DNA of 64,000 nucleotides, taken from NCBI RefSeq assembly GCF_016026235.1, contig NZ_CP065613.1. One strand, given 5' to 3'. Position numbers and translations under genes: made by a program. Shown one piece after another: positions 22,861-35,488 of the stretch (the first letter of the stretch is position 1; the number at the start of each line of letters is the position of its first letter). A model generated the notes under the pieces. The model was not told where the DNA came from. It was given only the letters and a program-made list of their open reading frames with translations, and did not search any database. Origin of the DNA: Escherichia coli. GTDB taxonomy: Bacteria > Pseudomonadota > Gammaproteobacteria > Enterobacterales > Enterobacteriaceae.

Positions 22861-23553
22861 TCAGAAGAAATACTTCGTCCCGATACGAATCTGGTTTTGC
22901 TCGCGGTGGTACGGTTCCACGTTGCGATCTAACCAGCGCAATTCAATATAGGGCAGCCAGTGCTCGTTAATGCGGTAACGGAAGGTGTTAGTGATTTCCC
23001 AGTGATGCTTCGTGCCATTGCCGCTATTGAAATCATTAATGTTATAAAAATAATGCGGCTCAAAGGTATATGAGAACTTATCGGTAATAATAAAGTTCCA
23101 GTAGTTGCCAATCTCGTAGCTGTCATTATTATCCAGATCACCGTTTAAATCGGTTGAGCTGTAGTTATTATGGTTAAAACGGTTGCGTACTGTCAGGTTA
23201 AACCACGGAGTAAATTTGTAGTTAACATCCAGATAAACAGCACCACCCGAACCGATACTCTTATCATTAATTAAGCCACCGGGCTGGATGGTTAATTTAT
23301 CGGTTGGTTTAAATAACGGATACCAGCCTTCAATTTCGTTATATCCATGTTTAAGTTCATCTTCTCGCTGAAAGGTGTAGGTATTGGTTAACATAATACC
23401 CGCGCCCATATCGAAGTTATAACCCACACGTAGCATAACCTCGCCCTGATCGGAGGCGAGATTATATGCCTCCCTGTTTTCGACGTATGCGCCAGCGAAT
23501 ACTGAGGCAGAGGTCAGAGAAGATAATAAAATTATTGCATTAATATTTTTCAT
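22861..23553 (-). CDS. ompL: KdgM-family outer-membrane oligosaccharide porin OmpL
   Basis: 230 aa from MKNINAIILLSSLTSASVFA (signal peptide), with beta-strand-rich sequence ending in the ...GTKYFF C-terminal Phe. The ORF-track start at 23619 is an extension. Confidence 0.9.
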   Translation of the reverse strand: MKNINAIILLSSLTSASVFAGAYVENREAYNLASDQGEVMLRVGYNFDMGAGIMLTNTYTFQREDELKHGYNEIEGWYPLFKPTDKLTIQPGGLINDKSIGSGGAVYLDVNYKFTPWFNLTVRNRFNHNNYSSTDLNGDLDNNDSYEIGNYWNFIITDKFSYTFEPHYFYNINDFNSGNGTKHHWEITNTFRYRINEHWLPYIELRWLDRNVEPYHREQNQIRIGTKYFF

Positions 23554-23619
23554 AATAAGTCCATTTTTAAACGTAGGGAGGCCGCCACCCACCAGGATGG
23601 AAATAGCGGCTATTGACAT

Positions 23620-25023
23620 TTATAACGTTACGGAAGCCGTTTTTTCTTCTGTCGCCATCTCTTTATTTTTGCGTTGGTTGATTTCCTCAATAATCAACGC
23701 AAACCGTTTTTCATTGAGTGTGTAAAAGAATCCCATCGTCAATGCAGCAATAATTGCCAGTGCACAAGGCCAGATAAAAATGAGCTGACGCAAACCCTGT
23801 AATGTCGCATCACTTTGCGCGATGTTGGGAACATAACCGATTTGCGTCAGCATAATGCCTGGCAAGAAGCCAGCAAGTGCGGCAGAAATTTTACGAAAGA
23901 AGGTATAACCGGTATAAACAGAACCTTCGGCACGAATACCGGTTTTCCATTCACCGTAATCTACGGTATCTGGCACCAGTGCCCAGTTCAGGCTGTTTAC
24001 AAAGGCCGTGCCAAAAAAGGCGATACAAGAGAACATGACGAAAGTGAAAGAGTTACTTCCCCAGAAATAATTCAGGATATCACCCACTGCCCATAGCACC
24101 ATGCCAGCTAAATAAACCTGTTTTTTACCAAAACATTTTACAGTTAATGGCACCAGTAATACGCCGATGAGGATGCATCCCATACTGAAGAATCCCATCC
24201 ACGACAATAAATTAATATCATTCAGCACATACTGGGTGTAATAGACCTGAATCGCCAGTTTGATATTAAATGCCGCCAGGGTACACAAGTTAGCAATGCA
24301 TAAAACCAGCAATGGCGGATTCCGAAATATCGCGCAAAATGATTTGAGAATACTGGCTTTATGTCCGGTTGGTGCTGTGTCCACATAATGCTCTTTGACG
24401 CCTCTGTAGCACAGCATCATAAAAATAAAGCCACCAATGGAGAACATCAGTGCCGCACAGGCATAACCGACGGTTGAGTCAGAAAAAAGCGACTGCAACG
24501 GAATAAACGCCACGGTACAAATCAATAGCCCTATGGTTGCACCACCCTGGCGGTAAGCCGCGAGCTGCGCGCGCTCATTCGGGTTTTTAGTAATGGCTGG
24601 GATCATCGCACCATACGAGCAGTTCATCAGACTGTATGAAAGTCCAAACATCATAAACAGCGCGGTGGCAATCGTCGTTTTAACCGGCAAACTAAAAGTG
24701 GTGGCGATAAACTGGAGCGTTGCAATTAACGCCGCCGGAACCGCTGCGTATAAAATAAAGGGACGAAATTTGCCTTTAGGCCCAATATTTTTCCGCGAAT
24801 CGAGTAAAAATCCGGTGAGCATATCGGTAAACGCGGTAAAAAACTTCGCCACCAGAAAGATAATCCCGCCATAGTAAGCTGGCATCCCTAATTCATCGGT
24901 ATAAAATTTGAGGAGATACAGAGTACCGATGCTAAGCATTAAATTCGAACCAACGTCGCCCATACCATAGGCGATTTTTTCCCGCAGATTCAGTTTTAAT
25001 GTCAGTGGATTATGGTCAGACAT
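23620..25023 (-). CDS. yihO: GPH-family sugar:cation symporter YihO (sulfoquinovose transporter candidate)
   Basis: 467 aa from MSDHNPLTLK, with SD AAGGAG 5 nt upstream. It is a 12-TM protein and a paralog of YihP. Confidence 0.9.
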   Translation of the reverse strand: MSDHNPLTLKLNLREKIAYGMGDVGSNLMLSIGTLYLLKFYTDELGMPAYYGGIIFLVAKFFTAFTDMLTGFLLDSRKNIGPKGKFRPFILYAAVPAALIATLQFIATTFSLPVKTTIATALFMMFGLSYSLMNCSYGAMIPAITKNPNERAQLAAYRQGGATIGLLICTVAFIPLQSLFSDSTVGYACAALMFSIGGFIFMMLCYRGVKEHYVDTAPTGHKASILKSFCAIFRNPPLLVLCIANLCTLAAFNIKLAIQVYYTQYVLNDINLLSWMGFFSMGCILIGVLLVPLTVKCFGKKQVYLAGMVLWAVGDILNYFWGSNSFTFVMFSCIAFFGTAFVNSLNWALVPDTVDYGEWKTGIRAEGSVYTGYTFFRKISAALAGFLPGIMLTQIGYVPNIAQSDATLQGLRQLIFIWPCALAIIAALTMGFFYTLNEKRFALIIEEINQRKNKEMATEEKTASVTL

Positions 25024-25065
25024 AATCACTCCTTATAACGCCCCGCAGGGCATTGTTTATTATTA

Positions 25066-33719: not shown

Positions 33720-33772
33720 AAACAATTGGTGAAATTAAAATGAACGCATCCCAAAATGTTTAAGGAATGACC

Positions 33773-34669
33773 ATGATTCGTGTTGCTTGTGTAGGTATAA
33801 CCGTGATGGATCGCATCTATTACGTGGAAGGGTTACCGACGGAGAGCGGTAAATACGTGGCGAGAAATTATACGGAAGTTGGTGGCGGGCCAGCGGCGAC
33901 GGCAGCGGTTGCGGCGGCAAGGCTGGGGGCGCAGGTCGATTTTATTGGTCGCGTAGGTGATGACGACACGGGCAACAGCCTGCTGGCAGAGCTGGAATCC
34001 TGGGGCGTTAACACCCGTTACACCAAACGGTATAACCAGGCGAAATCTTCGCAATCCGCCATCATGGTGGATACCAAAGGCGAGCGGATAATCATTAACT
34101 ACCCCAGCCCGGATCTGCTGCCTGACGCAGAGTGGTTGGAGGAAATTGATTTCTCTCAGTGGGATGTTGTGCTGGCAGATGTACGCTGGCACGACGGCGC
34201 TAAAAAAGCCTTCACCCTGGCCCGTCAGGCGGGTGTGATGACCGTTCTGGACGGGGACATTACGCCGCAGGATATCAGTGAGCTGGTGGCATTAAGCGAT
34301 CACGCGGCCTTTTCAGAACCGGGTCTGGCGCGCTTAACGGGCGTGAAAGAGATGGCCAGTGCGCTAAAACAGGCACAAACGCTCACAAATGGTCATGTCT
34401 ATGTGACCCAGGGTAGCGCAGGCTGCGACTGGCTGGAAAATGGTGGGCGTCAGCATCAACCGGCCTTCAAAGTTGATGTGGTAGATACCACAGGTGCGGG
34501 TGATGTTTTTCACGGCGCTTTGGCGGTGGCGCTGGCAACAAGTGGGGATTTAGCGGAGTCAGTCCGCTTCGCCAGCGGTGTAGCGGCGTTAAAATGCACA
34601 CGCCCCGGTGGACGAGCCGGGATCCCTGACTGTGATCAAACCCGATCTTTTTTGTCACTTTTTGTATAA
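33773..34669 (+). CDS. yihV: 6-deoxy-6-sulfofructose kinase YihV (PfkB family)
   Basis: 298 aa from MIRVACVGITVMD, with the PfkB signature DTTGAGDVFHGA and SD TAAGGAA 5-6 nt upstream. Confidence 0.9.
   Translation: MIRVACVGITVMDRIYYVEGLPTESGKYVARNYTEVGGGPAATAAVAAARLGAQVDFIGRVGDDDTGNSLLAELESWGVNTRYTKRYNQAKSSQSAIMVDTKGERIIINYPSPDLLPDAEWLEEIDFSQWDVVLADVRWHDGAKKAFTLARQAGVMTVLDGDITPQDISELVALSDHAAFSEPGLARLTGVKEMASALKQAQTLTNGHVYVTQGSAGCDWLENGGRQHQPAFKVDVVDTTGAGDVFHGALAVALATSGDLAESVRFASGVAALKCTRPGGRAGIPDCDQTRSFLSLFV
34653..34665. promoter_or_regulatory. repeat of the 13-bp TGTCACTTTTTGT motif just upstream of csqR
   Basis: Exact copy of 33627-33639. It overlaps the last codons of yihV, 38 nt upstream of the csqR ATG. 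Confidence 0.4.
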
Positions 34670-34702
34670 AATGCCAGGGTGATGGTATTTCGAGGAATTT
34701 TC

Positions 34703-35488
34703 ATGAGCCTTACCGAACTAACCGGTAACCCGCGGCACGACCAACTCCTCATGCTGATCGCCGAGCGTGGGTATATGAATATTGATGAGCTGGCAAATCT
34801 GCTGGATGTCTCCACGCAGACGGTCCGCCGGGATATTCGTAAATTAAGCGAGCAAGGCCTGATTACGCGCCATCACGGTGGCGCGGGTCGGGCTTCCAGC
34901 GTCGTTAATACGGCGTTCGAGCAGCGTGAGGTTTCGCAAACCGAGGAAAAAAAAGCGATTGCCGAAGCTGTGGCAGACTATATTCCTGATGGTTCAACAA
35001 TATTTATCACCATTGGTACGACTGTTGAGCATGTTGCCCGGGCGTTACTTAACCATAATCATTTGCGGATAATCACCAACAGCCTGCGTGTGGCGCATAT
35101 TCTTTACCACAACCCGCGCTTTGAAGTGATGGTGCCCGGCGGTACGTTGCGCTCTCATAATAGCGGGATCATTGGCCCTTCAGCGGCGTCCTTTGTGGCT
35201 GATTTTCGTGCTGATTATCTGGTAACAAGCGTTGGGGCGATTGAGAGCGATGGCGCGTTGATGGAGTTTGATGTAAACGAAGCTAACGTGGTGAAAACGA
35301 TGATGGCGCACGCGAGAAATATTCTGCTGGTCGCCGATCACACTAAGTATCATGCTTCGGCGGCGGTTGAAATTGGTAACGTGGCACAGGTCACTGCGCT
35401 CTTTACCGACGAGCTGCCGCCCGCTGCGCTAAAATCACGCTTACAAGACAGCCAAATTGAAATCATTCTTCCCCAGGAAGACGGGTAG
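34703..35488 (+). CDS. csqR: DeoR-family repressor of the sulfoquinovose cluster, CsqR (YihW)
   Basis: 261 aa from MSLTELTGNPRHDQLL, with a DeoR HTH (LLDVSTQTVRRDIRKL) and a C-terminal sugar-phosphate-binding domain. Confidence 0.9.
   Translation: MSLTELTGNPRHDQLLMLIAERGYMNIDELANLLDVSTQTVRRDIRKLSEQGLITRHHGGAGRASSVVNTAFEQREVSQTEEKKAIAEAVADYIPDGSTIFITIGTTVEHVARALLNHNHLRIITNSLRVAHILYHNPRFEVMVPGGTLRSHNSGIIGPSAASFVADFRADYLVTSVGAIESDGALMEFDVNEANVVKTMMAHARNILLVADHTKYHASAAVEIGNVAQVTALFTDELPPAALKSRLQDSQIEIILPQEDG

Follow-up and report, generated by a model that had tools for sequence, protein, structure and literature searches.

In a 64,000-nt stretch of Escherichia coli DNA (NCBI RefSeq assembly GCF_016026235.1, contig NZ_CP065613.1; hereafter the window), we found that positions 22861–35488 very likely represent the E. 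coli cluster for sulfoquinovose (SQ) breakdown at its usual locus, in a ‘long plus TauE’ form in which yihQ, the gene for the sulfoquinovosidase, is a null allele. SQ ranks among the most abundant organosulfur compounds in food and in the biosphere, and the yih cluster of E. coli serves as the reference for studies of its degradation; the version in strain K-12 was reportedly established by Denger et al. in 2014 as the prototype of the sulfo-EMP (sulfo-Embden–Meyerhof–Parnas) pathway. The initial annotation of this block had described a complete sulfo-EMP cluster with two strain-specific modifications, a premature amber codon in yihQ and an additional permease gene. Both differences from K-12 proved real. 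The cluster is not complete, because yihQ is interrupted, and neither modification is confined to this strain.

Gene positions were established from a map of open reading frames (ORFs) covering window positions 21000–38000 and from tblastn and blastn searches with the annotated genes of K-12 MG1655 and of GF3-3, a genome with the TauE-containing architecture; families were assigned by NCBIfam and Pfam profile searches of the window proteins. The block is bounded by the stop codons of ompL and csqR and contains all ten K-12 genes at full length, in K-12 order and orientation, with amino acid identities of 93–100% (OmpL, 93.0%; YihQ and YihR, 97–98%; the remaining seven, 99% or more). It sits between yihN and yihX, and its flanks (yihL, yihM and yihN on one side; yihX, yihY, dtd and fabY on the other) also follow the K-12 order. 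When the block was searched by megablast against 5,426 complete E. coli genomes, 4,038 gave a match, which in 3,879 cases spanned 80% or more of the block, so that a chance match is of no concern; the matched regions were invariably chromosomal and lay under genes annotated as ompL, yihO to yihV and csqR. The gene list and coordinates given initially were therefore correct, the proposed orthology to the K-12 sulfo-EMP genes held in protein alignments as well as in gene order and flanks, and the gene-by-gene functions agree with the literature (PMC8006165).

The lesion lies in yihQ (26497–28533, minus strand), which spans 679 codons in frame with a single internal stop at codon 385. Here an amber codon (27379–27381, minus strand; GCC TAG TTC) replaces the TGG codon for Trp385 that is found in K-12, GF3-3, NH-21, E. 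whittamii and all close alleles, a single-base G>A change (W385*). Outside this codon the gene is clearly recognizable: its translation is 97.6% identical to K-12 and 99.7% identical to GF3-3, both halves match the NCBIfam equivalog, and the N-terminal 384 amino acids match PDB entries 5aed and 5aee, the solved E. coli sulfoquinovosidase (E = 1.4e-272). Recognition of the substrate, including its sulfonate, depends on Q288, R301 and W304 in E. coli YihQ, with D405 as nucleophile, D472 as acid/base and further contributions from Y508 and H537 (bioRxiv 10.64898/2026.02.11.705467); R301, W304 and Y508 are also described as sulfonate-binding residues in PMC8006165. All of these are encoded in the window, Q288, R301 and W304 upstream of the stop and D405, D472, Y508 and H537 downstream, and the nonsense change would cut YihQ between sulfonate recognition and catalysis. 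We found no single polypeptide that unites the nucleophile, the acid/base and the sulfonate-binding residues, the combination that defines a GH31 sulfoquinovosidase.

A possible restart ORF runs from Met394 to the end of the gene (26497–27354, minus strand; 285 amino acids). It would supply the catalytic half of YihQ, that is, the C-terminal part of the GH31 TIM barrel plus the GH31 C-terminal domain, and its expression is putative. Its ATG lies eight codons past the stop, and the only Shine–Dalgarno-like motif, AGGAAG, is located 14 nt upstream of this ATG. The ORF downstream of the stop is undamaged, with G543S as the sole lineage-specific change. A complete active site is present in neither the 384-residue product nor the candidate restart product. 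On its sequence, yihQ is a pseudogene, which we treat as a null allele because its active site is split, the restart signal is weak and no tRNA gene was found in the window.

The remainder of the pathway is well preserved. The core enzymes are encoded together as full-length orthologues of the K-12 proteins and comprise the SQ isomerase YihS (30549–31790, minus strand; PF07221 with a GlcNAc 2-epimerase fold, 467 bits; 99.8% identity), the sulfofructose kinase YihV (33773–34669, plus strand; PF00294 PfkB, 235 bits; 100%), the sulfofructose-1-phosphate aldolase YihT (31807–32685, minus strand; PF01791 DeoC/LacD aldolase; 99.0%) and the sulfolactaldehyde reductase YihU (32709–33605, minus strand; NF012005 equivalog ‘sulfolactaldehyde 3-reductase’, 603 bits; 100% at both the amino acid and the nucleotide level). 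Substitutions relative to K-12 are limited to M399L in YihS and N2S, K143R and P203S in YihT, with none in YihU or YihV. The SQ mutarotase YihR, an aldose-1-epimerase (29578–30480, minus strand; NF011719 equivalog, 618 bits), shares 97.0% of its residues with K-12 and 99.3% with GF3-3.

The transport genes ompL, yihO and yihP are likewise all retained on the minus strand. They encode a 230-residue outer-membrane porin matching the ‘porin OmpL’ equivalog NF007434 over its full length (22861–23553; 471 bits; 99.6% identical to GF3-3) and two symporters of the GPH family, YihO (23620–25023; TIGR00792, 530 bits; full length), a putative SQ importer, and YihP (25066–26451; TIGR00792, 536 bits), a putative exporter of 2,3-dihydroxypropanesulfonate (DHPS) by K-12 annotation. 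Both symporters are 99.1% identical to their K-12 counterparts, with four conservative changes each.

Regulation also appears conserved. The DeoR-family repressor CsqR (yihW; 34703–35488, plus strand), with HTH_DeoR and DeoRC domains, is identical to K-12 at 260 of 261 positions (99.6%), the sole change being A261G at the last residue, and a run of eight adenines at 34946–34953 preserves the csqR reading frame. In the nearly identical assembly GCA_900449985.1 (locus L016, 3567–3607), this run comprises nine adenines, and csqR is split into ORFs of 95 and 172 amino acids, reflecting either a misassembled homopolymer or a genuine second lesion of that strain. The divergent yihU/yihV regulatory spacer (33606–33772) corresponds to the region that is bound by CsqR in K-12 (PMC8006165) and in which K-12 promoters have been mapped (PMC5816610). 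Together with its 30-nt flanks, it differs from K-12 by two mismatches in 227 nt, a comparison by overall identity rather than by CsqR operator sequences.

If each protein acts as its K-12 orthologue does, SQ would enter through OmpL in the outer membrane and then through YihO and/or YihP in the inner membrane. YihR would equilibrate its anomers, YihS would isomerize it to sulfofructose and YihV would phosphorylate the latter. YihT would then cleave the phosphorylated sulfofructose into dihydroxyacetone phosphate (DHAP) and sulfolactaldehyde, which YihU would reduce to DHPS for export, and CsqR would repress the divergent promoters until bound by SQ or a derivative. In the strain studied here, we infer that the release of SQ from sulfoquinovosyl-glycerol or sulfolipid is lost. 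Free SQ should still be taken up and catabolized to DHAP and DHPS, since neither the regulatory spacer nor any of the other genes is damaged, and the yihQ stop is predicted to have no polar effect on the downstream genes. The annotation of the window would accordingly change from an intact yihQ to a pseudogene, with predicted use of free SQ but not of SQ glycosides.

Several points weigh against this picture. After the stop, ~880 nt of yihQ remain untranslated upstream of yihP, yihO and ompL, including a C-rich, G-poor stretch at ~26830–26930, and Rho-dependent polarity could cut transporter expression, and even free-SQ use, if these genes rely on transcriptional read-through from yihQ. Moreover, E. 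coli Nissle, which possesses only a short cassette, was reported to grow on SQ (PMC12608037), so that inferring phenotype from genotype at this locus is insecure. One alternative, which we consider improbable, is ongoing loss of the entire cluster in this lineage, with a yihQ stop that is polar on yihP, yihO and ompL, failing SQ uptake and a dead locus. The untranslated, C-over-G region would suit such decay, as would the csqR frameshift in the nearly identical L016 and the frequent loss in E. coli of the upstream half of the cassette, which yields the short form (PMC12608037). The remaining genes, however, are full length with few substitutions, and the window lacks the csqR frameshift, which affects a homopolymer site and may stem from faulty assembly. 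Data from K-12 further suggest that yihR and yihQ are transcribed independently of upstream genes, and ompL, yihO and yihP are strongly induced by SQ (PMC5816610, PMC12608037). We favor a cluster that has lost its sulfoquinovosidase and kept its other steps.

It seems less probable still that YihQ activity survives, either by low-level read-through of the UAG codon or by re-initiation at Met394 followed by noncovalent assembly of the 384- and 285-residue chains. The nearby in-frame ATG, the undamaged downstream ORF and the persistence of the allele on several backgrounds would be in keeping with residual function. Against this stand the position of the only Shine–Dalgarno-like motif, whose 14-nt distance from the ATG is beyond the usual spacing, and the tRNA scan, which detected no tRNA gene, and hence no suppressor tRNA, in the window. 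An active site would also require the pairing of two chains, one bearing R301 and W304, the other D405 and D472. To our knowledge, there is no precedent for a GH31 active site assembled in this way.

It is very unlikely that the amber codon arose as an artefact of sequencing or assembly and that the cluster is fully functional, YihQ included. This reading draws on the single-base nature of the change and on the closest alleles from complete genomes, which are 99.8% identical and all carry TGG. Among the 5,426 complete E. coli genomes, a 71-nt query centered on the TAG codon had one exact match, in ERL04-3476 (NZ_CP032808.1, D8Z68_RS27645), whose yihQ is labelled a pseudogene (‘internal stop’) by RefSeq. 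An exact-protein look-up retrieved the 384-residue product on 21 contigs of a large collection, and among the TAG loci recovered were those of two NCBI assemblies and of six independent assemblies from read sets. These fall into at least three sequence backgrounds. The first matches the window over 21 kb, which marks it as the lineage from which the window derives, and comprises GCA_900449985.1 (99.995% identity), assembly L022 (100%) and assembly L017 (99.98%). A second context, in assemblies L015 and L018–L020, is ~98% identical to the window across the cluster, and the third is that of ERL04-3476, with 12 further differences within the first 582 nt of yihQ. The recurrence of the identical allele in independent assemblies, read sets and backgrounds all but rules out a sequencing error and shows that the amber allele, though rare, is not private to the strain.

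All three contexts carry a GF3-3-like yihQ core haplotype, which 586 genomes possess at 99% identity or above. The presence of TAG on several backgrounds may reflect spread by recombination or recurrent G>A mutation, both being compatible with so common a surrounding yihQ haplotype. A yihQ-null allele distributed in this manner could mark strains that live on free SQ from other gut bacteria.

Comparison by gene indicated a composite origin of the locus. The genes ompL, yihQ, tauE and yihR are 99.3–99.8% identical at the nucleotide level to GF3-3, as opposed to 90–96% to K-12 for those that K-12 shares. Values for yihO are ~98% to both genomes (98.2% to K-12), and those for yihP are 97.1% to GF3-3 versus 94.7% to K-12. 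From yihS to csqR, the relationship is reversed, with 99.5–100% identity to K-12 versus 96.8–99.0% to GF3-3. The haplotype switch falls in the yihR–yihS spacer (30481–30548), which measures 68 bp in the window and GF3-3 and 137 bp in K-12 (L003, 10102–10238); work on K-12 places a promoter in this spacer (PMC5816610). By these identities, the cluster is a recombinant mosaic with a GF3-3-like section from ompL to yihR and a K-12-like section from yihS to csqR, which explains why no complete genome matches the entire cluster above 98.7%. A mosaic fits the published view that the yih cassette recombines often (PMC12608037).

The additional gene, tauE (28642–29517, minus strand), encodes a 291-residue permease of the TauE/SafE (TSUP) family and is without counterpart in K-12. 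The protein matches PF01925 with 121.8 bits (cutoff, 32.6; E = 4.7e-35) over profile positions 2–235 of 237; no NCBIfam model matched it and no solved-structure homologue was found. It is 100% identical to WP_000345434.1 of GF3-3 and NH-21 and occurs on at least 1,000 contigs. Far from being strain-specific, tauE, at a length coverage of 80% or more, was detected in 1,287 of the 5,426 complete E. coli genomes, located between yihQ and yihR and consistently annotated as ‘sulfite exporter TauE/SafE family protein’. A K-12-type yihQ–yihR junction was present in 2,609 genomes; the two arrangements together account for the ~3,890 genomes having yihQ, and tauE thus occurs in about a third of the E. 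coli genomes with a long cassette.

In K-12, a segment equivalent to window positions 28592–29586, comprising 995 bp with tauE and the last three yihR codons, is replaced by 151 unrelated bases. Blastn of the junctions showed that homology to K-12 ends 56 bp upstream of yihQ and restarts 9 bp inside the 3′ end of yihR. A simple deletion in K-12 was rejected: a global alignment of the K-12 spacer with the tauE segment scored 95.9 versus a mean of 97.5 ± 6.1 for shuffled sequences, as expected for replacement by unrelated sequence. Within Escherichia, the ratio of nonsynonymous to synonymous polymorphism (pN/pS) of tauE is 0.016–0.055, so the gene is maintained by strong purifying selection. Beyond E. 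coli, the location between yihQ and yihR recurs in E. whittamii and in Enterobacteriaceae bacterium G50; in strain RIT691, tauE is placed between yihQ and yihP. Because of the shared position in E. whittamii and G50, the tauE-containing form is probably ancestral in Escherichia and the K-12 arrangement derived.

For information about the function of the permease, related tauE loci were sought in a scan of one genome per species. All nine loci found (9/9) are sulfoglycolysis clusters: three of yih type, five of sulfo-Entner–Doudoroff (sulfo-ED) type and one with both. The sulfo-ED-type clusters contain genes for a dehydratase, an HpcH aldolase, an epimerase, an SMP-30 lactonase, a YihU-like reductase and a short-chain dehydrogenase/reductase (SDR), and belong to other genera, with TauE orthologues at 77–85% identity. 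In Raoultella lignicola, TauE (81%) stands at the end of a block with genes for IlvD/Edd dehydratase, HpcH/HpaI aldolase, aldose epimerase, SMP-30 lactonase, YihU-like reductase and SDR proteins, the last of which matches PDB 9gwu, ‘Sulfoquinovose 1-dehydrogenase’ (E = 4.9e-98), far above any other SDR. The loci in Leminorella, Edwardsiella and two Vibrio genomes (TauE 77–85%) feature a YihU-like gene at the matching relative position, and for Vibrio owensii the dehydratase and SDR were confirmed by Pfam. Gene content and the 9gwu match thus identify these loci as sulfo-ED clusters; from the reductase they encode, DHPS is the predicted end product.

Some of these loci showed further features. 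In an uncultured Enterobacter metagenome-assembled genome (L012, 5341–14843), a sulfo-ED block with tauE abuts csqR–yihV and yihU, yihT, yihS and yihQ, and this locus may carry parts of both sulfoglycolysis routes. The R. lignicola sulfo-ED cluster ending in tauE (L009, 1040–14294) directly adjoins typA/bipA, glnA and glnL/glnG-like genes; the E. coli sulfo-EMP cluster resides in this same chromosomal neighborhood, and sulfoglycolysis modules may be exchanged there as at a hotspot. Enterobacteriaceae bacterium G50 (L007, 7001–12408) exhibits the order ompL-yihO-yihQ-tauE-yihR and so has tauE without yihP, the reciprocal of K-12; this single case hints at overlapping roles of TauE and YihP. In V. 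owensii (L013, 11054–14731), genes for a radical-SAM/SPASM protein resembling anaerobic sulfatase maturases and for a 794-residue sulfatase are located ~3 kb downstream of the sulfo-ED/tauE block.

In other sulfoglycolysis clusters, TauE/TSUP permeases have been proposed as exporters of C3-sulfonates (PMC8873060, PMC7491151). By its genomic association with such clusters, the TauE protein of the window is most likely an exporter of the C3-sulfonate end product DHPS. This assignment has to contend with two circumstances: K-12 excretes DHPS without TauE, and YihP is the annotated, putative DHPS exporter of K-12. We regard it as possible, albeit doubtful, that TauE is the ancestral, dedicated DHPS exporter of Escherichia sulfo-EMP, a module shared with sulfo-ED clusters of enterobacteria and Vibrio that K-12 has lost. 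If TauE is such a dedicated exporter, assigning DHPS export to YihP, as textbooks do, would be wrong or only part of the picture, and import, for example of SQ and SQ-glycerol, might be the role of both YihO and YihP. That the cassette mainly serves an alternative lactose or galactose route, as proposed for yihS, yihT and yihV on the basis of their lactose-dependent induction and regulation by YihW and CRP (PMC5816610), is highly unlikely given the structural and kinetic evidence that YihS, YihV and YihT are selective for sulfonated intermediates through dedicated sulfonate pockets (PMC8006165) and given the linked TauE permease, whose presence in sulfo-ED clusters also points to sulfonate metabolism.

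Scans of the cluster with Rfam and for tRNAs turned up no RNA genes, and in a repeat scan the yihO/yihP paralogy was the one notable repeat. In a consensus promoter scan, promoter-like sites were no commoner than in shuffled sequences, and terminator-like matches were mainly intragenic. Outside the cluster, an ORF for a 448-residue IS4-family transposase (18155–19501, plus strand) lies between typA/bipA (16227–18050) and yihL (19705–20415). This insertion sequence (IS) is also found in GCA_900449985.1 (L016, with Nterm_IS4 and DDE_Tnp_1 domains) and is absent from K-12, GF3-3 and L015. The fabY–fdhE interval (38473–43797), which holds yiiE and yiiF in K-12, contains transposase DNA of the IS3 family (IS1397-like); it was covered to at least 80% in three of the 5,426 complete genomes, best in FDAARGOS_943 (99.9%), which has an additional IS1. 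A Shigella origin behind the pseudogene and IS elements was discarded, as the matching record STM03236.1 is named Escherichia coli and the window is 99.995% identical to GCA_900449985.1. RNA features at 7860–7978, 9007–9260, 16038–16145, 48681–48739 and 59429–59591 comprise Spot 42, CsrC, the ES222 small RNA, a selenocysteine insertion sequence (SECIS) element of fdoG, the gene for the formate dehydrogenase-O alpha subunit, and two copies of naRNA4 of the repetitive extragenic palindromic (REP) type. Such features are ordinary for this region of E. coli.

Relative to known systems, the cluster represents a variant rather than a discovery: the pathway is already known, and the TauE form is routinely annotated in RefSeq and is under-discussed. 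The cluster of K-12 MG1655 (ompL-yihOPQRSTU/yihV-csqR) has the same site, order and orientation, with identical YihU and YihV, but possesses an intact yihQ and no tauE, while the window section from ompL to yihR is a distinct haplotype with 90–96% nucleotide identity, except for yihO (98.2%). The architecture ompL-yihO-yihP-yihQ-tauE-yihR-yihS-yihT-yihU/yihV-csqR is identical to that of ‘long plus TauE’ clusters annotated in RefSeq for numerous natural E. coli strains, such as GF3-3 and those of O157:H7, and for E. whittamii. Except for ERL04-3476, these genomes have an intact yihQ, and the yihS–csqR section of the window is K-12-like rather than GF3-3-like. ERL04-3476 shares both the codon-385 TGG>TAG change and the TauE-containing architecture but in another background, with 98.6% identity to the window over 6 kb. 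The short cassette yihTUVW of Nissle 1917 and many pathogenic strains (PMC12608037) occupies the same locus and likewise illustrates a natural loss of upstream pathway steps; the window, in contrast, retains all genes, with only yihQ inactivated and by a point mutation instead of a deletion or inversion. A 2025 survey that separates long and short forms of the yih cassette mentions neither TauE nor permease variants or pseudogenes (PMC12608037), and our literature search, whose coverage excluded Denger 2014 and Shimada 2019, found no work linking a TauE gene to the E. coli yih cluster. The closest functional parallels are the TauE/TSUP permeases of sulfo-ED, sulfo-transaldolase (sulfo-TAL) and actinobacterial sulfo-EMP clusters (PMC7491151, PMC8873060), which share PF01925, an association with SQ catabolic genes and a C3-sulfonate end product. 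These proposed exporters of sulfolactate or DHPS belong to other phyla or pathways, whereas the exporter of enterobacterial sulfo-EMP has been assumed to be YihP; if TauE exports DHPS, the transport steps of the model pathway need to be revisited.

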